From a virus (Duplodnaviria > Caudoviricetes), in IMG/VR virus record IMGVR_UViG_3300011335_000505, positions 1 to 26,269 of that record: a stretch of 26,269 bases of DNA; one strand, 5' to 3'. Below the pieces are notes generated by a model. It made no database searches and was not told the DNA's origin. It saw nothing but the letters and a program-made list of their open reading frames with translations. The translations under genes and the position numbers were made by a program. Within the stretch, counting starts at the first letter, position 1. Each line of letters starts with the position of its first letter. Positions 2,374-15,938 of the stretch are shown here, in pieces.

Positions 2374-2829
2374 ATGAAAATAACACAAATTAGTGATGCT
2401 TGTATTGACTTAGTAAAGTCATTTGAGGGGTTCTTTTCAAAGCCTTATTTATGTCCGGCAAATGTCCCAACAATAGGTTATGGGACTATTCTATATCCTA
2501 ATGGTAAAAAGGTAACTTTAAAAGATTATCCTTGTACTGAAGAGCAAGCAATAGAATGGATGAGATTTGAATTAAACCAAAAAGCAAAAGAAGTTGATGC
2601 TATGACAAGCGATGCAGTTACCCAACATCAATTTGATGCGTTAGTGTCATTTGCTTATAACTGCGGTTCGGGTGCTTTAAAAGGTTCTACACTACTTAAA
2701 AGAGTAAACAATAATCCTGCAGACTTAACTATTGTTGATGCATTTTTGATGTGGACTAAGGCAGACGGAAAAACATTAAACGGTTTAGTTAGAAGAAGAA
2801 AAGCAGAAGCTAAACTATATTTTAGTTAA
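2374..2829 (+). CDS. Endolysin, GH24 (T4/P22-like) lysozyme
   Basis: FEGFFSKPYLCPANVPTIGYG gives the E-x8-C-x5-T triad; also QFDALVSFAYNCG and C-terminal GLVRRRKAE. Confidence 0.95.
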   Translation: MKITQISDACIDLVKSFEGFFSKPYLCPANVPTIGYGTILYPNGKKVTLKDYPCTEEQAIEWMRFELNQKAKEVDAMTSDAVTQHQFDALVSFAYNCGSGALKGSTLLKRVNNNPADLTIVDAFLMWTKADGKTLNGLVRRRKAEAKLYFS

Positions 2830-3132
2830 AATTTTAGTATATTGTTTATAATAATATTTCAAACTAATCTTCTTGCCAGTAACTTTACGATAAACAGAAT
2901 ATCCAATTGCAGGGCAAGGGAATGAACGATGCCAACCACCACATACATAATTTACAACAACATCATCAAAGTTTCTAATTAGTGGCTTTATTGGTAGTTT
3001 ACTAACTCCTAATTTCTTATCTCCAACATTTATAAACTTCCATCCTTGATGTTCTTTTATAGCATATTCTTTACCGTGTGTGTCCCACACACGATGCCAC
3101 ACGTTATCATAGTATATGGTATTTTGTAACAT
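2815..3132 (-). CDS. Hypothetical protein (105 aa), last gene of the leftward early region
   Basis: ATG with A-rich leader; converges on and overlaps the endolysin 3' end by 15 nt. Confidence 0.7.
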   Translation of the reverse strand: MLQNTIYYDNVWHRVWDTHGKEYAIKEHQGWKFINVGDKKLGVSKLPIKPLIRNFDDVVVNYVCGGWHRSFPCPAIGYSVYRKVTGKKISLKYYYKQYTKILTKI

Positions 3133-3151
3133 TGATTATTAATTGATTAAT

Positions 3152-3179
3152 GTTAGGTGCATATATTAGAGAGTTAAAT
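3152..3179 (+). other. attI-like recombination half-site with two GTTRRRY cores
   Basis: GTTAGGTGCA (3152) and GTTAAATGCA (3173) are 8/10 direct repeats 21 bp apart; the second is the left boundary of the cassette. Confidence 0.45.
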
Positions 3180-3649
3180 GCAATGGCTACCAGCCTGCAC
3201 CTCTTGAAACTGTTTATATAAATCTTCATCAGAGTAATGGAAACCATTTGAGCCGCCAGGCTGACACCACCCTTCTGCGTATCTTTTCAGGTCTTGTTCG
3301 CCAAACCATTTTATAAAATCCATTATCTGCTCTTTCTTTGAATCTAAAAAGCCTTTGTTATAAGACTTTCTTAATGGCTCACCCCAGATAACCACAGGTT
3401 CTTCTTTTTGCTCAAAATGTTTGGCAACCAAATTAAGGATGGCTGTATATTTATCAATATTAACCTTCCCGTTAACTTCAATTAGTTTTGCCAATTCAAT
3501 TATAAAAGTTTCTTTTTCCATATTTTATTTTTTTAGTTCACTAAATTAACCGCCACTGCATTTAACAATGTGTTTTGCGTCAGTCGGGCAGACGGAACAT
3601 ATCCAAGCTGCGGTTTTCCAAATTCCCGCCCGAACGCAAAGCACCAACG
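3173..3649 (+). mobile_element. Integron-like gene cassette (one ORF plus attC-like site)
   Basis: GTTAAATGCAATGGC (3173-3187) is the 14/15 reverse complement of GCCACTGCATTTAAC (3552-3566), which opens the attC-like hairpin; exactly one ORF lies between them. Confidence 0.7.
3174..3521 (-). CDS. Hypothetical protein (115 aa), cassette cargo
   Basis: ATG with A-rich leader; its TAA stop falls inside the GTTAAAT core at 3173-3179. Confidence 0.8.
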   Translation of the reverse strand: MEKETFIIELAKLIEVNGKVNIDKYTAILNLVAKHFEQKEEPVVIWGEPLRKSYNKGFLDSKKEQIMDFIKWFGEQDLKRYAEGWCQPGGSNGFHYSDEDLYKQFQEVQAGSHCI

Positions 3650-3655
3650 TTAGCT
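3560..3655 (+). repeat. attC-like imperfect palindrome (96 bp)
   Basis: ATTTAAC-AATGT-GTTTTGCGT-(CAG bulge)-TCGGGC ... GCCCGA-ACGCAAAGC-ACCAAC-GTTAGCT; clearly more GC-rich than its surroundings. Confidence 0.75.
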
Positions 3656-3669
3656 AATATACTACATTA

Positions 3670-3873
3670 CTATTTATTAAAAGTTTCATTGTAGTATTGT
3701 TCTGCAAATTCTTTACTATTTTGCTCACTTATACAATCTGAATTATCACCATTCCAAAAAGCATCTATTATCTGTTGCTTTTCCATTTCTTTGGCTAATG
3801 AGATTGCATCTATTGCCAACATATTGTTTTTGGTTATTTGATAGATAAACCAATCTAAGGCAGTTTGTTTCAT
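3670..3873 (-). CDS. Hypothetical phage protein (MKQTA-x-x-W...AKEMEKQQIIDA type)
   Basis: Pattern I recall from many aquatic Bacteroidota phages; function unknown. Confidence 0.85.
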   Translation of the reverse strand: MKQTALDWFIYQITKNNMLAIDAISLAKEMEKQQIIDAFWNGDNSDCISEQNSKEFAEQYYNETFNK

Positions 3874-3882
3874 AGTTTATTT

Positions 3883-4164
3883 TTAAAGTTTACAAATGGC
3901 ATCATCCACATCATTGTAATTATCATCTAAATACTTGTCAATAATAGCGTTCTCACTTTCATTATAAAGTGATTTATTCCATTCAATTGTATCTTCACAA
4001 GTTGTAACTATTTCAACAGTTGCCGAATATTTAAAGCCCCAGTATTCTCCTGCATCTTCTCCCACATCTATTGAATGAGGTTCGCCGGTAAATTCTACAT
4101 CTAAAAAATAAGATTCACCATTTAATAATGATGGCATTTCAATTTGTCTTGTTATTGTTTCCAT
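3883..4164 (-). CDS. Hypothetical acidic protein (93 aa)
   Basis: Tightly packed in the leftward operon; rich in D and E. Confidence 0.8.
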   Translation of the reverse strand: METITRQIEMPSLLNGESYFLDVEFTGEPHSIDVGEDAGEYWGFKYSATVEIVTTCEDTIEWNKSLYNESENAIIDKYLDDNYNDVDDAICKL

Positions 4165-4165
4165 T

Positions 4166-4402
4166 TTATAAAATTGTAAGGGTTATGTCTAATTCAATAT
4201 TTTCGATGACTGATTTGTGTACAAAAAAGTAATCTTTTTCATCAAACTTTAATTCATAACCTAATTCAGCTAATTTGTCAATGCTTGATTTTTCAACGTT
4301 TCCTTGCAATGCTATTCGATAACCGGAATAAGCAATCGAATAAAACATTTCTGCATCTACTTTGGTTAATAACTCTTGTAAAATTTCATTTACTTTTTTC
4401 AT
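4166..4402 (-). CDS. Hypothetical protein (78 aa)
   Basis: ATG after an A-rich leader; stop is 1 nt from the next start. Confidence 0.8.
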   Translation of the reverse strand: MKKVNEILQELLTKVDAEMFYSIAYSGYRIALQGNVEKSSIDKLAELGYELKFDEKDYFFVHKSVIENIELDITLTIL

Positions 4403-4413
4403 TTTGTTTTTTT

Positions 4414-4806
4414 TTAATTGTTTAAATATTGAAAGATAAAGTGTTTATGTTTTCTAGACCCATTGCAACACAGGCTTACTGTTCCTTTACTAACTTGTAA
4501 TGTAGTTGCAGCCTCAGCTACACTATCATAAACTTGAGAATTGCCATCACTATCACTGGCAATAACTCTTTTCTTATGCCATTGCCCACGTTTGCAGGGT
4601 TGCTCTAGTATGCTTGCAATAACTTCTTTGTAGTTGACGCACTCAATCACAAAGCAATAACCTTTTGCTTGTTTAAATCTATTATTCAATACAAGCCAAA
4701 TACTGCTTACATCTATTTTTAATTTAGTGCTTGCTTCACTAATGCTTTGATATTGGGAATATCGGCCGGTGCTTATTTTGTAAGCTATTATAGGTTGTGG
4801 TTGCAT
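4414..4806 (-). CDS. Tandem NUMOD1 (IENR1) HTH DNA-binding domain protein
   Basis: Two repeats: YQSISEASTKLKIDVSSIWLVLNNRFKQAKGYCF and YDSVAEAATTLQVSKGTVSLCCNGSRKHKHFIF. Confidence 0.85.
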   Translation of the reverse strand: MQPQPIIAYKISTGRYSQYQSISEASTKLKIDVSSIWLVLNNRFKQAKGYCFVIECVNYKEVIASILEQPCKRGQWHKKRVIASDSDGNSQVYDSVAEAATTLQVSKGTVSLCCNGSRKHKHFIFQYLNN

Positions 4807-5006
4807 TATGCTATTTTAGTTTTATCAATATTTTCACCTTTATAGAAGTGAGTATTTTGTCTGTTCTCAACTTTACGACATTCAATAGGATATTTAGCAT
4901 TTAACTGGTCTTGGTTTAGCTTTTCACCATTGATATAGTAAAAACCTTTAGTGAAAGTTGCAGAGTGCCTTATGGCTTTATTTGCTAGAAATTTAAAGAT
5001 GTGCAT
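4806..5006 (-). CDS. Hypothetical protein (66 aa)
   Basis: Stop overlaps the next start (TAATG), suggesting translational coupling. Confidence 0.75.
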   Translation of the reverse strand: MHIFKFLANKAIRHSATFTKGFYYINGEKLNQDQLNAKYPIECRKVENRQNTHFYKGENIDKTKIA

Positions 5007-5025
5007 TCTTTTTGATTTAGGTTTT

Positions 5026-5054
5026 AAAAAAGTCTGCGTTGTTCAGTCGCAGCC
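5026..5054 (-). terminator. Weak intrinsic terminator or attenuator hairpin
   Basis: Minus strand GGCTGCG-ACTGAACAA-CGCAGAC-TTTTTT, just after the stop of 5065..5304. Confidence 0.45.
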
Positions 5055-5064
5055 CTGAGGATGT

Positions 5065-5304
5065 TTAGCTAAAAGCTGGAGCCATTGAATATGTACCTAA
5101 TGCCATAACATACTCGCTGCCATCGTAGCCTACTTTTACCTTTTTGCGTACAATGCTATTCATTACCTTAACAGTTACATAATCACCTTTTCTGCTTAAT
5201 ACATCAGCTGTAAAAATGCAATCATTATCACAAATGCTTCTTGCTGTAATTGTTGTTCCTGCTTTTATCACTTTTGTTTCAATTTGTGTGTTTGTGTTTG
5301 TCAT
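5065..5304 (-). CDS. Hypothetical beta-rich protein (79 aa)
   Basis: First gene after the promoter at 5325-5332; A-rich leader. Confidence 0.8.
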   Translation of the reverse strand: MTNTNTQIETKVIKAGTTITARSICDNDCIFTADVLSRKGDYVTVKVMNSIVRKKVKVGYDGSEYVMALGTYSMAPAFS

Positions 5305-5324
5305 ATCTTTTTTGTTTTGTTACA

Positions 5325-5354
5325 CAAAGATAAAATGTAACACCATACTACAAA
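5325..5354 (-). promoter_or_regulatory. Bacteroidota housekeeping-sigma promoter
   Basis: Minus strand TTTG (5354-5351), 18-nt spacer, then TATCTTTG (5332-5325), matching the -33 TTTG and -7 TAnnTTTG consensus. Confidence 0.75.
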
Positions 5355-5362
5355 ATGAAATC

Positions 5363-5379
5363 TACGCAATCGTGTGCGT
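5363..5379. promoter_or_regulatory. LacI/PurR-type operator-like palindrome, copy 1
   Basis: ACGCAATCGTGTGCGT (5364-5379); its TACGCAATCGT part recurs at 8660-8670. Confidence 0.6.
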
Positions 5380-5383
5380 TAGA

Positions 5384-5719
5384 TTAGAAAGGCAAGTCAG
5401 AACTTAAATCAGGTTCAACTGTTTTAGGTGCTGCAACAGCAACTCCATCAACTGCTACTTTCCAACATTGCAAAGTATTAAATACAACTACTTCGCCCTT
5501 TGGATTAGTCCATTCTCTACCTCTCAAATTAATACTGCAATTTACTTCGCTGCCAATTGCAACATTATTAAACAAATTTACTTTGTCACCACTAACTTCA
5601 ATCTCGATAGTTTGCGGATAGTTACCACTTGCATCAGTTGTTAGCCATACTTTACGACTTACAAAATTGCCACGTTCTACTTGTGCATTTACTTTTTTCA
5701 ATATACCTTTAAGTTCCAT
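5384..5719 (-). CDS. Single-stranded DNA-binding protein, DUF3127-like OB fold
   Basis: MELKGILKKV...YPQTIEIE...INLRGREW...FNTLQCWKV with SSB-type C-terminal DLPF. Confidence 0.9.
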   Translation of the reverse strand: MELKGILKKVNAQVERGNFVSRKVWLTTDASGNYPQTIEIEVSGDKVNLFNNVAIGSEVNCSINLRGREWTNPKGEVVVFNTLQCWKVAVDGVAVAAPKTVEPDLSSDLPF

Positions 5720-5751
5720 AATTAATTGAGTAACTCCTCCGAGGTTGTTTA

Positions 5752-5853
5752 TTAAAAATCACATTCTGTGAATCCAAAATCTTCAAAACTATCTGCTAAA
5801 TCATCTATCCAGTTGCATAGCATATAGCCTATATTTCTAAGTATGTTTATCAT
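5752..5853 (-). CDS. Small acidic protein (33 aa); missing from the ORF track
   Basis: MINILRNIGYMLCNWIDDLADSFEDFGFTECDF; ATGA overlap with the upstream gene's stop. Confidence 0.55.
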   Translation of the reverse strand: MINILRNIGYMLCNWIDDLADSFEDFGFTECDF

Positions 5854-6101
5854 AGCAAATCGTTTATTTTTTTACAAGCTGTTGAACGTTTTAAATCTTC
5901 TACATTTGGCTCAATTACATAATACCACTTATCAACTGGCAACTTTAAGGTTTTAAAATTATCAATTATTTTCTTACGTTCAGAATAATTTCTGTATGCA
6001 GCAGTTCGGCACTTTTCGCCATTATACATAACTGTAATAAAACCATTGATAGCTACTACTTTACTTCTTTTTTGTATTGACATAATTCTTATAATTTTCA
6101 A
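5850..6101 (-). CDS. Hypothetical basic protein
   Basis: In-operon ORF; the start could be the later Met (MSIQKR). Confidence 0.7.
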   Translation of the reverse strand: MKIIRIMSIQKRSKVVAINGFITVMYNGEKCRTAAYRNYSERKKIIDNFKTLKLPVDKWYYVIEPNVEDLKRSTACKKINDLL

Positions 6102-6411
6102 TGATGTAATTTAATTCATCTTCATACTTTTTTGCATTTGGAAAAATATGCTCCATTGATTTATAAATGGCTAACATTTCTTTGCTTTCAAGATGTGCCG
6201 CAACGAATTTAGGTATTGCCAAAGGTTGAAAATCTGCCATAGTTAGATTGAGTGCTTGTTGTTTAGTTAAACCGCCTAAGCAATCAGTTACTTGATTACG
6301 CCATTGCATCACCTGGAGATTATACTGTTCTGTTAGAAACGTTCTAAAAGCTAACATCTCATTCTCTTTGGCTAACATTGCCAGTTGTTCAGCGTGTTGT
6401 AAATCAATCAT
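6061..6411 (-). CDS. Hypothetical protein (116 aa)
   Basis: In-operon ORF overlapping both neighbours. Confidence 0.75.
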   Translation of the reverse strand: MIDLQHAEQLAMLAKENEMLAFRTFLTEQYNLQVMQWRNQVTDCLGGLTKQQALNLTMADFQPLAIPKFVAAHLESKEMLAIYKSMEHIFPNAKKYEDELNYIIENYKNYVNTKKK

Positions 6412-6571
6412 TCCACACCTCCTTTATTAGTTGTTTAGCAAAAAATATAGAGTCATAAACTGCATCTTCTTTCTCGGTGTAAATTTCATCAAGTAGAAGT
6501 ATTGGCAATAATGCAGCTGCTAATTTAGCAACTTTTTTTTTGTAGAAATAGGTTTTGATTTTCTTAAGCAT
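6404..6571 (-). CDS. Hypothetical protein (55 aa); missing from the ORF track
   Basis: MLKKIKTYFYKKKVAKLAAALLPILLLDEIYTEKEDAVYDSIFFAKQLIKEVWND; fills the gap with 8-nt overlaps on both sides. Confidence 0.75.
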   Translation of the reverse strand: MLKKIKTYFYKKKVAKLAAALLPILLLDEIYTEKEDAVYDSIFFAKQLIKEVWND

Positions 6572-6851
6572 TTTGGTCGATTTGTTGGATTAATAAATTT
6601 GTGTATCTTAATGAATTCATTACATCTATTTTTCTTGATTCTCCATTTTCACTAACTCCATCTTTCGCTATTATCCCTGCCAATATAGTAGCAGATGTTT
6701 GTAGCAATAACTGATTAGACTTATCATCTATTTGTGTTTCCACTTGTTCTTGTTCCGGCTCCGGCTTCATACCATCAAAGAAGATTGCAGGATTTGAGAT
6801 GCTTAAAGATTCAAGTCTTTTTAAAATTGTTGATTCGCTGTAAAGTTTCAT
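6564..6851 (-). CDS. Hypothetical protein (95 aa)
   Basis: Start at 6851 (MKLYSES) preferred because it lies 2 nt after the upstream stop at 6854. Confidence 0.75.
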   Translation of the reverse strand: MKLYSESTILKRLESLSISNPAIFFDGMKPEPEQEQVETQIDDKSNQLLLQTSATILAGIIAKDGVSENGESRKIDVMNSLRYTNLLIQQIDQNA

Positions 6852-6853
6852 AA

Positions 6854-7487
6854 TTATAGTGTTATTTGAATGTTTGAAAATGATAAATATTGACGGCAAA
6901 TATTAGCAGTTAGTAATCTATTTTCTTGCATAGCAGCATAAGCAGCAGTAGCAGCAGTAGCAGCAGCAGCAGCAGCAGTAGCAGCATCAGCAGCATCAGC
7001 AGCAGCAGCAGCAGCAGCATCAGCAGCATAAGCAGCAGTAGCAGCAGCAGCATCAGCAGTAGCAGCATCAGCAGCAGCAGCAGCGGCAGCAGCAGCATCA
7101 GCAGTAGCAGCATCAGCAGCAGCAGCATGCAGCAGCAGCATCAGCAGTAGCAGCATCAGCAGCAGCAGCATAAGCATTTAATTCAATTATACTTATTCTA
7201 CCTTCACCAAAACTAATTGCAGCATCTACTGCGTTTATACTTCTTTCATCTTTCATTAAATGCCTTGCCGTATTTGAACAGCGACCTTTCGCTAATGTTA
7301 GCATTTGTAAATTTTCAGGATCTATTTTTTTAAATAGCCATAATAACCAATCCCCTCTATAACATTGCTCAATTACTTCATTAGCCGTTTTATTTTTAGC
7401 CCATCCAATCGCTTCATTACAAGCATTTTTTTTAATTAATAACTGCATAAATTCGCTAGCAGTTAAATCTTTAAATAGTTTTGTCAT
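6854..7487 (-). pseudogene. Helical protein with long Ala-rich repeat (Imm5-like N-terminus, tentative), frameshifted by a 43-bp duplication
   Basis: ORF 7113..7487 runs into AYAAAADAATADAAA and the same Ala frame continues in 6854..7177. Deleting one 43-bp copy gives one 196-aa ORF ending MQENRLLTANICRQYLSFSNIQITL. Confidence 0.8.
6931..7176. repeat. Degenerate trinucleotide repeat (GCA)n, about 245 bp
   Basis: Minus-strand codons are almost all GCT, interspersed with GAT, ACT and TAT; contains an exact tandem duplication 7086-7128 / 7129-7171. Confidence 0.95.
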
Positions 7488-7491
7488 TTGT

Positions 7492-8331
7492 TTAAATTTT
7501 AGCGTTTTTAATTAATTGTATTCTTTCGGTTTGTTCGGGAGTTAAAGCAAAAGCCTCGATAGCCTCGATAGTTGTTTTACCAGCGTGAAATGCAGTAATA
7601 GCAGCATTAAATCTATCATCAGTTAAAATAGTCTTAATATTCTTAATAGGTGGTTCGCCTTGTTCACACCACTCTTTTATAATTAGTCCAGTATCTTCAG
7701 TAATAGTAAATATTGGCTTATCCATAAATAAACCTGTTCTGTCTTTTGATGCAGTACAATTATGCTTTTCGTCAAGGTTGAAATTAACAGTTAATTCATA
7801 CTCAAAACCTTCTCTAGTAACTTCTTTTAATCCAGCTTTTTCAACCTTTGTTTTTGTTCCGTCTTTAATCATTTCATATTCAGTCTTACGACGAACAGTA
7901 GTAACAACGTGGCATTTACTTTGAAGTATTGCATCAATAAACTTTTGATGTCTAGGTGTAATGCTAGACCAATTAGTAAAACTATTACCAGTCATACTAC
8001 TATGTATTTCTAAAATGCCACCTTTGCCATCCCATTCGTGAGTAATGCTATCAATAATAATACACTCCATTCCAGCATCTTCACACGTTTTAATCGCTTG
8101 TATGTAGCGTTCAGGGGTGTATGGTGCTGATAATTCTAATGTGCTAAACTCGCCTAAATGACTGTAAAGACTAGCACTATTATTTTCTGTGTCAATTACT
8201 GCTATTTTATCATAGCTACCTACTAATCCTTTTGCTAGTAATAGAGCTGAATAAGTTTTGCCTCCTCCGCTTACAGCACTCAATCCTAATCTTAATTTTA
8301 CTTGTTGCCTTGTGGCTTTTTTTAATTGCAT
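7492..8331 (-). CDS. AAA_24 family ATPase, Sak4-like ssDNA-annealing recombinase
   Basis: Walker A SAVSGGGKT, IAVIDTE, Walker B IIIDSITHEW, REGFEYE and ASKDRT; same operon as the SSB. Confidence 0.85.
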   Translation of the reverse strand: MQLKKATRQQVKLRLGLSAVSGGGKTYSALLLAKGLVGSYDKIAVIDTENNSASLYSHLGEFSTLELSAPYTPERYIQAIKTCEDAGMECIIIDSITHEWDGKGGILEIHSSMTGNSFTNWSSITPRHQKFIDAILQSKCHVVTTVRRKTEYEMIKDGTKTKVEKAGLKEVTREGFEYELTVNFNLDEKHNCTASKDRTGLFMDKPIFTITEDTGLIIKEWCEQGEPPIKNIKTILTDDRFNAAITAFHAGKTTIEAIEAFALTPEQTERIQLIKNAKI

Positions 8332-8336
8332 TTTGT

Positions 8337-8534
8337 TTAATTATTTGGGTTTAATAAATTATAATGATAAACTTCTAAGTTGCTACTACACACATCTTGA
8401 TTATAACTCGGTGCAGTTCTAGCACGTTTTTGTTTTATAGGCTCTTGCTTAGGTTGCCATTTCTTTTGCTCAATCTCTAACTGAATAGACATTGCAGTTG
8501 GTTCGTTAGAGCAAAGGTTGTTATCTACTTGCAT
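8337..8534 (-). CDS. Hypothetical protein (65 aa)
   Basis: In-operon ORF ending 5 nt before the ATPase start. Confidence 0.65.
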   Translation of the reverse strand: MQVDNNLCSNEPTAMSIQLEIEQKKWQPKQEPIKQKRARTAPSYNQDVCSSNLEVYHYNLLNPNN

Positions 8535-8602
8535 ATATTGTCTTGAATGTAACCGGCTATTGCCAGTAAGATTAATAAATAAATTATTGTTTTTAGTTTC
8601 AT
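8525..8602 (-). CDS. Small hydrophobic peptide (25 aa); missing from the ORF track
   Basis: MKLKTIIYLLILLAIAGYIQDNICK; first ATG after the promoter at 8622-8629. Confidence 0.6.
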   Translation of the reverse strand: MKLKTIIYLLILLAIAGYIQDNICK

Positions 8603-8621
8603 AATTTTAACATTTGAACCA

Positions 8622-8629
8622 CAAAAATA
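8622..8629 (-). promoter_or_regulatory. -7 box of the main leftward early promoter
   Basis: TATTTTTG on the minus strand, 19 nt upstream of the ATG at 8602. Confidence 0.65.
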
Positions 8630-8659
8630 TAAGTATATTTGATATTATATAAAACAATT

Positions 8660-8681
8660 TACGCAATCGTTGCCAATGCGT
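8660..8681. promoter_or_regulatory. LacI/PurR-type operator-like site, copy 2
   Basis: TACGCAATCGTTGCCAATGCGT; same offset from its -7 box as copy 1. Confidence 0.55.
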
Positions 8682-8698
8682 TTTAATTACTTTATTTG

Positions 8699-8845
8699 TT
8701 AATTTAAGATAGTGCATAATATTCGTTCCCTTACTGCAACTGTTAAACTCTTAAACTTCTTTAATATTTCTTTTTTCTCACTATCGGTAAGATAAGCAGC
8801 TACTAATTTTACTTTGTCTTTGTCTTGTTTTTTCGGACGTGCCAT
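8699..8845 (-). CDS. Small ribbon-helix-helix-like transcription regulator (48 aa); missing from the ORF track
   Basis: MARPKKQDKDKVKLVAAYLTDSEKKEILKKFKSLTVAVRERILCTILN: ARPKK arm, alternating beta strand, LT-x-x-E helix cap and second helix; sits at the strand divergence. Confidence 0.7.
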   Translation of the reverse strand: MARPKKQDKDKVKLVAAYLTDSEKKEILKKFKSLTVAVRERILCTILN

Positions 8846-8859
8846 ATAAATAATTTTTG

Positions 8860-8921
8860 CAAATATAATATTTTATAAAATATAAAAATATTTTTTTTAT
8901 TAAAACAAATTACCATCTTTG
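8860..8921. promoter_or_regulatory. Divergent promoter pair with palindromic operator candidate
   Basis: TATATTTG on minus (8867-8860), CATCTTTG on plus (8914-8921), perfect palindrome ATATTTTATAAAATAT (8868-8883). Confidence 0.6.
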
Positions 8922-8945
8922 CAATTCAACAAAAATTTTAAAACA

Positions 8946-9146
8946 ATGACAAATGAAAAAAATCAGTCGCCTACTTGGTGCGATATGATACAACAAGAAC
9001 GCTATCAGTTACTCGGTGAGTTAATTGATGCAATGATTTACTCACCAGATGCAGTTATTGAAGTGCAACAGCTAGTTAAATCGTTCAAAGAAAGAAGTAT
9101 GGTAAAAAGTATTATTAACCCTAAAAATGAAAACAATGGAATATAA
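8946..9146 (+). CDS. Hypothetical protein (66 aa)
   Basis: ATG at 8946 after AAAACA preferred; the track's TTG at 8919 lies inside the promoter box. Confidence 0.7.
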   Translation: MTNEKNQSPTWCDMIQQERYQLLGELIDAMIYSPDAVIEVQQLVKSFKERSMVKSIINPKNENNGI

Positions 9147-11292
9147 TGAATTTTTGAAAACAAAACAAAAGGCACATATTGAAAGTGGATTTGAGCCTAC
9201 ACAATTAAATAAAAAATTATTTCCATTTCAAGAGTTTATTGTTAGACGTGCTTTAAAAGCTGGCAAGTATGCAATATTTGCAGATTGTGGACTCGGTAAA
9301 ACATTAATGCAGCTTAGTTGGGCAGAACAAGTATCAATTCATACAAATAAACCTGTATTAGTTTTAGCCCCTTTGGCAGTAGTGCAGCAAACAAAACAAG
9401 AGGCTGTTAAATTTGGAATTAACATTGATTGTATTGATGCTGATAATTATGAGCAAATAGATAATATTGATTGTTCAAAATATAGCGGAGTAGTACTTGA
9501 TGAAAGTAGTATTTTAAAAAACTTTGAAGGTGCTACTAAAAAACTAATAATTGATAACTTCGCTAATACTCCTTACAAATTAGCTTGTACTGCTACACCA
9601 TCACCAAACGACCCAATGGAGTTGGGCAACCATTCTGAATTTTTAGATGTTATGAGCCGAAATGAAATGCTTGCAATGTATTTTGTTCACGATGGCGGAG
9701 AAACTGCTAAATGGAGATTGAAAGGACACGCTACAAAACTATTCTATCAATTTATAGGAACGTGGGCCATAATGTTAAATAAGCCTATGGATATTGGTTT
9801 TGAAATGATTGGTTATGATTTGCCAAAACTTAACTTAATTGAAAAATTAATAGTAACTCCAAATAGAGATAATGGGCAATTATTTAATGATGCTATCATT
9901 TCAGCAACAAATTTCAACTCTGAACTTAGACAAACTAAAAAAGAAAGATTAGATGAAGTTGTTAAGATAGTAAATGAAAAGCCTAATGAAAACTTTATAA
10001 TTTGGATAAAGCAAAATGAGGAAGGTGAAATGTTGAAAAAATTAATACCTGAAGCTATTGAAGTTAAAGGTAGTGATAGCAACGAATGGAAAAAAGATAA
10101 ATTACTAGGATTTGGAAATAATGAATTTAGAATATTAATTACTAAAACAAAGATTGCAAGTTTTGGGATGAATTATCAAAATTGCAGAAATCAAATATTT
10201 GCATCTTTAGATTTTAGCTTTGAGGGTTTATATCAAGCCATCCGTAGGAGTTATAGATTTGGGCAAAAAAACGAAGTAAACATTTATTTAATAACAACTG
10301 ATACAATGGCTAATGTTAAACAAGCTATTGATACAAAACAAAAACAATTTGAAATTATGCAAGATGAAATGAGTAAAGCTATTAATGCTAATTTAAATAA
10401 CCAAACAATGACTACTGCAAGTTATAATATTGAAAGTGAAATAAATGAATATTATGAAATTAAAAGAGGTGATTGTGTAAACCTAATAAAAGATGTTCCG
10501 AATGAAAGTATAGGTTTAAGTGTTTTTAGTCCGCCATTTGCTGAACTATACACTTATTCAAGTCATATAGAAGATATGGGTAACAGCAAAAATTATAATG
10601 AGTTTTTAACACAGTTTAGTTTTTTGATAAAAGAACTTTATAGAGTTATGATGCAAGGAAGAAATGTTGCTGTACATTGTATGGATTTGCCAATACAAAA
10701 AGGTAAACACGGTTATATTGGTTTGCGTGATTTTAGCGGATTGCTTTTAAAAGCTTTTGAAGATGCTGGTTTTTATTATGCTAGTAGAATTACAATTTGG
10801 AAAGACCCTGTTGTTGAAATGCAAAGAACAAAGGCATTAGGATTGTTACATAAGCAAGTAAAAAAAGATAGTACAATGTCAAGAGTTGGAATACCTGATT
10901 ATGTAATGATATTTAGAAAAGATGGCGAACGCAGCAACCCTGTAACTAATACTGATTTGCCTGTTGATTTATGGCAAAAATACGCATCTCCTGTTTGGAT
11001 GGATGTTGATTATGGTAATACTCTACAAGGTTATAGAAATGGCAGAGATGCAAATGATGAAAAGCATATATGTCCTTTGCAATTAGATACTATTGAAAGA
11101 TTAATACATCTTTATTCAAATAAAGGAGATACAGTATTTACACCATTTATGGGTATTGGTAGTGAAGTTTTTCAAGCTGTTAAAATGAAACGCAAAGGAA
11201 TCGGTTTTGAATTAAAAGAAAGCTATTTTGATTTAGCTAAAAAGAATATCGTAATGGCAGTTGAAACTAATAAACAAACAACTTTATTCTAA
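9127..11292 (+). CDS. SNF2-like helicase fused to beta-class N4-C/N6-A DNA methyltransferase
   Basis: Helicase motifs ADCGLGKT, LDESS, TATPSPND and QAIRRSYRFGQ; methyltransferase catalytic SPPF precedes SAM-binding PFMGIGS and GIGFELK. Confidence 0.9.
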   Translation: MKTMEYNEFLKTKQKAHIESGFEPTQLNKKLFPFQEFIVRRALKAGKYAIFADCGLGKTLMQLSWAEQVSIHTNKPVLVLAPLAVVQQTKQEAVKFGINIDCIDADNYEQIDNIDCSKYSGVVLDESSILKNFEGATKKLIIDNFANTPYKLACTATPSPNDPMELGNHSEFLDVMSRNEMLAMYFVHDGGETAKWRLKGHATKLFYQFIGTWAIMLNKPMDIGFEMIGYDLPKLNLIEKLIVTPNRDNGQLFNDAIISATNFNSELRQTKKERLDEVVKIVNEKPNENFIIWIKQNEEGEMLKKLIPEAIEVKGSDSNEWKKDKLLGFGNNEFRILITKTKIASFGMNYQNCRNQIFASLDFSFEGLYQAIRRSYRFGQKNEVNIYLITTDTMANVKQAIDTKQKQFEIMQDEMSKAINANLNNQTMTTASYNIESEINEYYEIKRGDCVNLIKDVPNESIGLSVFSPPFAELYTYSSHIEDMGNSKNYNEFLTQFSFLIKELYRVMMQGRNVAVHCMDLPIQKGKHGYIGLRDFSGLLLKAFEDAGFYYASRITIWKDPVVEMQRTKALGLLHKQVKKDSTMSRVGIPDYVMIFRKDGERSNPVTNTDLPVDLWQKYASPVWMDVDYGNTLQGYRNGRDANDEKHICPLQLDTIERLIHLYSNKGDTVFTPFMGIGSEVFQAVKMKRKGIGFELKESYFDLAKKNIVMAVETNKQTTLF

Positions 11293-11309
11293 TGAACTGG
11301 AAAAAACTA

Positions 11310-11317
11310 TATATTTG
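11310..11317 (+). promoter_or_regulatory. -7 box of the helicase-primase operon promoter
   Basis: TATATTTG followed by CA, intergenic. Confidence 0.7.
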
Positions 11318-11320
11318 CAT

Positions 11321-11436
11321 CGCACAATAGAGGTAAGAGACTATTGTGAATTATAAAAATATTTACCATGTAGGCTGTCCGATTTTAGCAATAGTGCTAT
11401 TTTCTTTCTTACACAGCCTACCGTGGTTTTTTATTT
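11321..11436 (+). ncRNA. Structured 5' leader or attenuator candidate
   Basis: Hairpin CACAATAG/CTATTGTG; long hairpin ACCATGTAGGCTGT/ACAGCCTACCGTGGT followed by a T-run directly before the ATG; loop-loop complementarity between them. Confidence 0.55.
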
Positions 11437-12876
11437 ATGGAACTTAGACCATACCAAAATGACTTTATAACCAATATTAGACGTACACTTCAACACTCTA
11501 AAAAAATAATAGCTTGTAGCCCAACAGGCTCAGGTAAAACAGTTGTATTCTCTAAAATAATTGAAGACGCTCATAAAAAAAAATTTACTACATTAGTAAT
11601 TACTGAAAGTAGAAAAATATTTAAACAAATTACTGAAAAGGTTAATGGAATTGAAATAAACGCTGGCTGCATAATTGATATAATTGATGACGGAAAAGTG
11701 TATATTGCAATGGCTCAAACACTTGGAGCAAAAAAAAGACAACACCTAATTTGCCAATTTGCTAAAAAACAATTATTAGTTATTGTTGATGAAGCACACA
11801 TAGCAACCCCTACAAAAATACTGCTACAATTAAATAATGCCTATATAATTGGCTTTACTGCAACTCCTGATTATAGAGTTGCGAAACATTTGCCTATTAT
11901 TTACAACAGCATAGCTATTGGAATGCAACCAGCGAAGTTAGTAGAAATGGGTTTTTTAGCTAAATATAGACACTTTGAACGCAAAGCTATTAACCAATCT
12001 TTGCTTACTCAAAAAGGTGGTGAATTTACTGAAGATAGCCAATATGCAGAATTTGTAAAACCAAAAGTATTTGATGGATTATTTGAAGATCTAAAAGAAC
12101 ACAATTTTAAAAAAGCTATAATCTTTTGCAGTAGTATAAAACATTGTAAAATGCTGGTGCAACAACTTAGAAATATGAATTTTAAAGTTGCCGAAGTACA
12201 TAGTGAAAACCCAAACGAACACTTTGAAAGGATGCAATTTGAAACAAATGATACTGATATTTGTTGCAGCGTTGGCATTTTAACAAAAGGTTATGACTAC
12301 CCACCTATCGACCTTGTAATTTTACAACGTGCAACTACTTCACTTGCTTTATTTTTACAAATGGTTGGGCGTGGTTCTCGAATATTTGAGGGTAAAGAAT
12401 TTTTTAAAGTTCTCGATTATGGTGGTAACGCAACAAGATTAGGATTGTGGGATTTTGATTATGATTGGGGTACAATGTGGCTCGAACAAAAAAAGAAAAA
12501 AAAAGGAATAGCTGCCGTTAAAGAGTGCCCTAAATGTGGATTGTTACTTGCCTTAAATACTAAAATTTGCACAGAATGTGGTTATGAATTTAAACAAAAA
12601 AAGAAAAAAGAAGAAGAAGAACAAGAAACTATTTTAGTGGAATTAACAAAAAGTGTTAAATACTATAAAGATAATGGTGGCAAAGTTCACGCCTCACTTT
12701 ATACTGCTATATCTACATTGCTATCAAAAAATAAAAAATCCTCTTTTGAACAAATACAAATTCTTTTTGCCCCAATTTTGGCATCTTTTCAAAAATCAAT
12801 AGGGCGAATAAATACTGCTAATAATAAACAATTTTGGAATAACGAATTAAAAAAGAAATATGAATCTACTATCTAA
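11437..12876 (+). CDS. SF2 DEAH helicase, RadD/YejH-like, with C-terminal zinc ribbon
   Basis: SPTGSGKT, IVDEAH, GFTATP, LTKGYDYPPID, QMVGRGSR and CPKC-x10-CTEC. Confidence 0.92.
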   Translation: MELRPYQNDFITNIRRTLQHSKKIIACSPTGSGKTVVFSKIIEDAHKKKFTTLVITESRKIFKQITEKVNGIEINAGCIIDIIDDGKVYIAMAQTLGAKKRQHLICQFAKKQLLVIVDEAHIATPTKILLQLNNAYIIGFTATPDYRVAKHLPIIYNSIAIGMQPAKLVEMGFLAKYRHFERKAINQSLLTQKGGEFTEDSQYAEFVKPKVFDGLFEDLKEHNFKKAIIFCSSIKHCKMLVQQLRNMNFKVAEVHSENPNEHFERMQFETNDTDICCSVGILTKGYDYPPIDLVILQRATTSLALFLQMVGRGSRIFEGKEFFKVLDYGGNATRLGLWDFDYDWGTMWLEQKKKKKGIAAVKECPKCGLLLALNTKICTECGYEFKQKKKKEEEEQETILVELTKSVKYYKDNGGKVHASLYTAISTLLSKNKKSSFEQIQILFAPILASFQKSIGRINTANNKQFWNNELKKKYESTI

Positions 12877-15315: not shown

Positions 15316-15620
15316 AAGTTACGGAAAAAAGGGTAACCGTTACCCTTTTTTTTAAAAAAGGGTAACCTTTGAAAGCCTTACTACTATTGACTTTTATTTA
15401 AAAGTTACCTAAGTTACCCTTTTTTTTATATATAAGTTTTATATAGAAATAAAATAAAGTAAATAAAAATCTATCTACTTAACATTTATAAAATATATAT
15501 TTACCTTATAGAAGTAATATAGCAAAACCACATAAAAAAAGGTAACTCCGTAACCTATGCTTAAAATCAATTAGTTATAAAAACAAAAAAGGGTAACCAA
15601 TAAACAAAAAAGGGTAACTT
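15316..15620. other. Probable replication origin (iterons flanking an AT-rich core)
   Basis: About ten GTAAC/GTTAC-core repeats, the fullest being AAAAAAGGGTAAC, in both orientations around a very AT-rich 15421-15535 segment, directly after the primase-helicase. Confidence 0.8.
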
Positions 15621-15938
15621 ATGGAAAATAAAATACAAAATGAGATAGTTTTATGGTGGAATGAAAATAAACCAACTCAAAGAAAAATGCTTTTTGCAGT
15701 AAATAACAACTCACACAATGCAATTAAAGGAGCAATGATGAAATCTTTAGGCGTTGTTAATGGCGTTAGCGATTTAATTTTAGTTCTACCTAACAAAGTA
15801 TTATTCATTGAAATAAAAACAGCAACAGGTAAACAGTCACCTCATCAAATTGAATTTCAAAAACAAATTGAAAGTAATGGTTTTGAATACCACATAATAA
15901 AAAGTTTGATTGAATTTAAAACCCTAATTACAAAATAA
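15621..15938 (+). CDS. VRR-NUC domain nuclease (PD-(D/E)xK)
   Basis: MENKIQ, GVVNGVSDL, FIEIKT and GKQSPHQIEFQ. Confidence 0.92.
   Translation: MENKIQNEIVLWWNENKPTQRKMLFAVNNNSHNAIKGAMMKSLGVVNGVSDLILVLPNKVLFIEIKTATGKQSPHQIEFQKQIESNGFEYHIIKSLIEFKTLITK

Follow-up and report, generated by a model that had tools for sequence, protein, structure and literature searches.

An integron-like gene cassette in a variable phage slot and a candidate tyrosine recombinase without the I2 region

We analyzed a 26,269-bp virus record (IMGVR_UViG_3300011335_000505), about 79% complete and here called the window. Positions 3174–3649 probably form one gene cassette that occupies a variable slot. Its likely point of insertion is an attI-like site, and the likely agent is an integron-integrase-like tyrosine recombinase without the I2 region, which would probably come from the host or a co-infecting phage. 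The main strength of this reading is comparative, as the breakpoints of related phages lie at 3173–3176 and 3648. Recombination activity is predicted from the sequences.

The window encodes lysozyme, terminase, primase, helicases and a DUF3127 protein, and every long ORF from 2815 to 8534 in the ORF list lies on the minus strand. The host appears to be of Bacteroidota type because of where the site family occurs. Elsewhere in the window, a low-complexity tract of GCA-type triplets (6900–7180) encodes an Ala/Asp-rich ORF end with an apparent frameshift between ORFs 7113–7487 and 6854–7177, and is missing from the alignment blocks with the related genome G003. An N6/N4 methyltransferase fused to an SNF2-like helicase (9127–11292) also has no match in the G003 alignment.

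The cassette and its hairpin

The features of the slot are listed in Table 1. The left half of the hairpin consists of ATTTAAC (3560–3566), a 5-nt spacer, an arm (3572–3580), a CAG bulge (3581–3583) and TCGGGC (3584–3589). The right half consists of GCCCGA (3628–3633), an arm (3634–3642), a 6-nt spacer and GTTAGCT (3649–3655). An earlier sequence-only reading had assigned attC geometry to this hairpin, and every element that it named was present on direct reading. It had also described the left cassette end as an inverted repeat of the right end. Indeed 14 of the 15 positions pair, and the sole mismatch is C3556 against A3183. The 476-bp length and the stop of a 115-aa ORF inside the left core were found as claimed. 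The inverse core does pair imperfectly with its own right core, but at 5 of 7 positions rather than at the four claimed.

Table 1. Features of the variable slot and its flanks in the window
Feature	Positions	Strand	Remarks
105-aa ORF, function not assigned	2815..3132	-	starts 40 nt from the entry GTT, at the place of the recombinase in other phages
Putative attI-like entry site	3157..3175	+	non-folding; GC box 13-14 nt before GTT
Left cassette end	3173..3187	+	GTT, 7 nt, invariant A3183, 4 nt
Whole 476-bp cassette, predicted excision unit	3174..3649	+	boundaries from relatives
115-aa cargo ORF, no known family	3174..3521	-	inverted to the hairpin top strand; stop inside the left core
Right cassette end	3552..3566	+	invariant C3556; inverse core 3560-3566
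attC-like hairpin	3560..3655	+	predicted crossover 3649/3650; near-identical copies in L001 and L173 with other flanks
Right flank	3649..3666	+	begins like a cassette start (A at +8), without closing partner; best partner 5/7 within 5.5 kb

Compared with classical attC geometry (Nivina 2016), the hairpin has RYYYAAC/GTTRRRY cores, unpaired spacers of 5–6 nt, paired L arms and a length within 57–141 bp; the right core GTTAGCT deviates at one position. Half of the bottom-strand marks are present: the T at position 23 lies within the 3-nt bulge, but position 16 is paired and there is no extrahelical G. A comparison with known ncRNA families left the sequence-only reading standing, as 3560–3655 matched no Rfam covariance model up to E 10. 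No match to the hairpin was found among GenBank phages.

Folding of 3560–3655 gave z-scores of -2.4 and -2.5, and of -1.4 and -1.7 with flanks, which is only moderately above chance. GTT..AAC repeats agreeing at 11/12 positions occurred five times in the window versus 0.11 times per shuffled window; four of the five come from one unrelated repeat (15339–15618). When closed ends and hairpin were called jointly, shuffled sequence gave 0 calls in 348 kb of viral DNA and 1 call in 555 kb of bacterial DNA. At 15325–15625, after the primase gene, a G3-TAAC motif and A-runs are repeated in both orientations around an AT-rich centre, and at a guess this could be a replication origin.

The sequence-only reading placed the ORF inverted to the attC top strand. 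This assignment holds because arrays start on the left at a non-folding site and end with a hairpin. The minus strand was also considered as top strand and rejected, since the non-folding site is on the left and pairing of the stems is better with their own left end (mean 6.7 of 8 positions) than with the hairpin right core (3.4), a difference that is partly due to selection.

The 115-aa cargo ORF had no Pfam or PHROG match and no Atlas match at 0.9. Its C-terminal half is common to 10 other proteins. No cargo ORF locus was found in viral contigs, and the one metagenome match was weak and lay in unrelated DNA. The gene is inverted in the cassette, and a promoter scan stayed at chance level (8 versus 9.5). 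Other cassettes carry DNA methyltransferases, including two of the three cassettes in L009. A cassette of the same family at L129 2542–3311 carries a gene for Tad6, a Thoeris inhibitor.

The slot in related phages

Relatives were gathered via the lysin, which gave 80 loci, 9 of them at 82–96% identity. In L013 and L014, the match to the window ends at 3176 and other cassettes follow; L015 and L016 have the entry site of the window, again followed by other cassettes. L009 (also G003) is a 100% complete genome of 32,157 bp with terminal repeats. It is 94.3% identical to the window over 1–2828, has a like site and three other cassettes, and rejoins the window at 3648. Altogether five related contigs keep the site ending in GTT (3173–3175) and continue with other cassettes. 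L017 carries several cassettes, whereas L010–L012 have no array. Both the slot and its boundaries were seen directly in these comparisons. Two expectations of the earlier reading, that cassette content varies at the G^TT positions and that the same hairpin flanks other ORFs in arrays, were borne out.

An array with at least two attC sites and no integrase is classed as a CALIN. The window, with one hairpin, does not belong to this class; L009 and L017 would qualify.

A search of viral DNA with the entry pattern gave 18 hits. Five were the relatives of the window, each with a closed cassette and a hairpin. The other 13 were chance matches, with closure of at most 8/11 and no hairpin. The circle junction and empty site predicted by the sequence-only reading did not turn up: no empty site occurred among the 18 hits, the entry pattern had 0 hits in the metagenome scan, and neither a circle joint nor a skip occurred in the contigs of four runs, although contigs drop rare forms. 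In run X3, one contig had the form of the window and another had a hairpin variant starting at 3563. The shares from RNA runs were small (0.05–0.06) and were left out of the evidence. A 40-nt coding stretch of the window (3757–3796) was matched by very many unrelated contigs, with a summed depth in the thousands in run X3.

Some exchanges suggest a more complex picture. The 7 nt to the right of the last GTT differ within a homologous flank and the following bases are conserved when window 3652–3666, L009 7137–7150 and L014 ~5248–5262 are compared, and L203 and L204 diverge 7 nt to the left of GTT. These two cases suggest that strand exchange may not always occur exactly at G^TT. The difference after the last GTT is not explained by a G^TT cut alone. 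Hairpins and ends also reassort: L001 has the same hairpin with other ends, and in L017 similar ends go with another hairpin. The cassette that L013 carries at the same entry site (5035–5779) is forward-oriented and looks like a host-type capture. In a 67.5-kb provirus record (G002 7483–12307 and L002), two arrays face opposite ways and PF00589 has no match.

Site family, entry site and recombinase

A hairpin-pattern search found 48 viral loci and 47 genome loci, most of the latter with Bacteroidota in their titles. A site caller, which replaced an earlier strict one that gave only 2 sites, was run on 65 viral and 82 bacterial loci; these were chosen by the same patterns and are not a random sample. 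With calls starting AACG excluded (8 viral, 11 bacterial), we obtained 77 distinct cassettes in 37 viral loci, the window cassette among them, and 55 in 31 bacterial loci. The family was in this way observed on both sides.

The viral cassettes carried 66 inverted and 2 forward genes, and 9 had no dominant ORF; 27 of the 66 inverted genes start inside the hairpin. The bacterial cassettes had 27 forward and 17 inverted genes and 11 without either. A Pfam scan of the loci with inverted bacterial cassettes (43 ORFs of 9 loci; forward loci left out) placed 9 of the 17 in three loci with phage-type hits, and the other 8 not clearly so.

The end stems covary, with up to four pair types. In 77/77 viral cassettes they are perfectly paired at 7 of 11 positions, whereas the filter required only 9/11 overall. 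A mismatch at position 8, which is G.T on the bottom strand, is kept in 76/77 viral and 54/55 bacterial cassettes. Its strand is the same for forward and inverted genes, which would point to a role at the DNA level. The bottom strand was the more stable in 62 of 85 calls, mirror-strand duplicates included.

No tyrosine recombinase (PF00589) was found in the window, as the earlier reading had said, with the limit that it is about 79% complete. PF00589 was also absent from the complete array-bearing genomes G003, the close relative, and G015; G016 was positive. Recombinases were located at four places (L111, L137, L150 and L173) when the loci were searched with a motif; arrays and such enzymes do occur side by side. 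In phage L173, 37 nt separate the entry GTT from the start of a gene for a 290-aa recombinase, and a cassette follows. Compared with the window, this cassette has 20 of 21 left-end bases identical and the same right end and hairpin, but encloses an unrelated 102-aa gene. L207 and L208, with enzymes 60 and 57% identical, repeat the layout, although the core of L208 is degenerate. The cultured Polaribacter phage Leef_1 has the same order of recombinase, entry site and cassette. In L173, L207, L208 and Leef_1, the entry-like sites lie 37–50 nt before the recombinase genes.

The L173 recombinase was aligned with VchIntIA (PDB 2a3v). Its residues 181–202 span VchIntIA 185–247, so that about 40 residues are missing between two aligned stretches and the I2 insertion is absent. 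The catalytic R, K, H, R, H and Y are invariant in 6/6 aligned recombinases. All four array-adjacent recombinases scanned fell below the cut-off of TIGR02249, which they matched in two stretches. The recombinase family is found in 34 of 101 genomes of a phylum sample.

We built an entry-site matrix from 8 phage entry sites and scored 38 bacterial loci, 3 of them without a parsed ORF, with two windows each; L111 had been seen by eye beforehand. Scores of at least 6 were reached by 8/35 recombinase loci versus 3/202 coding control chunks, and the other 27/35 loci had no such score. The L221 entry site has 13 of 16 bases in common with that of the window. By position and likeness, 3157–3175 would be an attI-like site at the head of the array. 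This putative entry site, the invariant mismatch and the candidate I2-less enzyme go beyond the sequence-only reading. No intI gene was found in cis, and the array-adjacent enzyme of L173 lacks I2. The window cassette works like an integron cassette and, by these two failed tests, stands outside the IntI integrons.

The 105-aa ORF beside the entry site had no recombinase match. That it is the remnant of a recombinase found no support, with only one further locus recovered. Small ORFs, which fall into two groups that align weakly, start about 40–46 nt from entry sites (window 2815–3132, L009 4495–4725 and L203–L205), in the place where other phages have the recombinase. The three homologues of the L009 type that were examined all head cassette arrays.

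Proposed mechanism, alternatives and meaning

We propose excision of the cassette as a circle, where the hairpin and both cassette ends would together fold into one long stem. The predicted circle site folds at -30.2 (bottom) and -27.6 kcal/mol (top) versus -17.3 and -16.2 kcal/mol when integrated. The bottom strand, on which the invariant mismatch would form a G.T pair, would be favoured. A single strand exchange at G^TT, located as in attC (Nivina 2016) at the bottom-strand AAC, would join the cassette to the entry site, and the junction would be resolved by replication. The recombinase would act in trans, provided by the host or by a co-infecting phage. Some cassette movement may also come from top-strand exchange or homologous recombination. 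The bias to inverted genes in phages would arise because the array points against early transcription, so only cassettes with inverted genes would be expressed and selection would keep these.

As in integrons (IntI1, VchIntIA), a putative entry site lies beside a tyrosine recombinase, cassettes would be cut at G^TT, the hairpin has AAC/GTT cores, the core is split after insertion and the bottom strand folds better. Unlike in integrons, the recombinase lacks the ~40-aa I2 region, the L box lacks the extrahelical G, the cassette ends pair over 11–15 bp with an invariant mismatch, and the phage genes are inverted and often start inside the hairpin. The use of folded sites by integron integrases has been attributed to an innovation, the I2 helix (Escudero 2020), and a viral origin of integrons was raised as speculation (Escudero 2016).

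CTXphi integrates as a whole genome at the dif site of its host. The present system resembles it in that a phage would use a recombinase not its own, with a folded single-strand site and an enzyme without I2 (PMC4792948); CTXphi/XerCD may therefore serve as a precedent for folded-strand recombination without I2. In contrast, the present phage arrays would take up single genes, and the array-adjacent enzyme is not XerC/D by NCBIfam cut-offs. Closer still, 17 CALINs have been reported in 10,705 phage genomes, including Polaribacter phage P12002L, as attC-like sites and cassettes without an integrase and with methyltransferase cargo (Qi 2023, PMC9892861). That study assumes classical IntI; an entry site, a rule of inverted genes and an enzyme without I2 do not appear in its accessible text. 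The integrase of Leef_1 was taken as a sign of temperate life, and the word integron is absent from the accessible text of the flavophage paper. Phage CALINs are thus already published; no paper describing an I2-less variant with these marks was found in the literature searched, with most subscription journals and bioRxiv supplements outside the reach of the search.

It is unlikely that the sites, though derived from such a system, are no longer acted on by a site-specific enzyme in this lineage and that most swapping now occurs through phage homologous recombination at short stretches of shared sequence. This would account for the missing recombinase in the window and two complete genomes, the off-core breakpoints and reassorted hairpins and ends, and the negative searches for circle and empty site. 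However, the five relatives switch at the same three bases, adjoining a site without a repeat to recombine with, and the perfect stem positions of all viral cassettes exceed what the filter demanded. An ordinary cassette, left as a CALIN remnant of a host integron and handled by classical IntI, is very unlikely. The cores, the 5- and 6-nt spacers and the bottom-strand T at 23 fit a classical attC, and IntI1 was active on 5 of 6 phage attC sites (Qi 2023). But the only site on which it failed, P12002L_attC1, has the present layout by our reading, position 16 lacks the extrahelical G, and the TIGR02249 scores stay below the cut-off. Moreover, complete integrons are almost missing from the IntegronFinder 2.0 results for Bacteroidetes, with one listed in Bacteroidetes proper.

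The idea that the hairpin is a MITE- or REP-like insert or an RNA structure, with the flanking repeat incidental, is extremely unlikely and already largely refuted. Near-identical hairpins do occur in many unrelated phages and bacteria, and MITEs common to Bacteroidota and their viruses have been reported (MITE survey). In contrast, there is no Rfam match, every gene is enclosed by covarying ends of its own, the mismatch stays on one strand for either gene direction, and arrays adjoin a tyrosine recombinase.

Insertion of the cassette by an I2-less recombinase acting in trans remains our preferred reading. It is also quite possible, and we offer this tentatively, that Bacteroidota and their phages share an active integron-like system, whose I2-less recombinase would recognize the long helix that closes a cassette and contains one fixed mismatch. 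Phages lacking this enzyme would hijack the copy of the host, keep inverted cassettes as an anti-defence bank and reload one frame with new genes, as the window and L173 would illustrate. That a single frame surrounds two unrelated genes is relevant to how cassettes arise. Cultured phages are available: Leef_1 has the enzyme and an array, and P12002L has no listed integrase. If the insertion reading is true, the five relatives with different genes in the slot would reflect a ready means of gene swapping. Such a system would offer a site-specific route to phage mosaicism and anti-defence genes, such as methyltransferases and the Tad6 cassette, and an array-building enzyme without I2 would make the origin of integrons testable.
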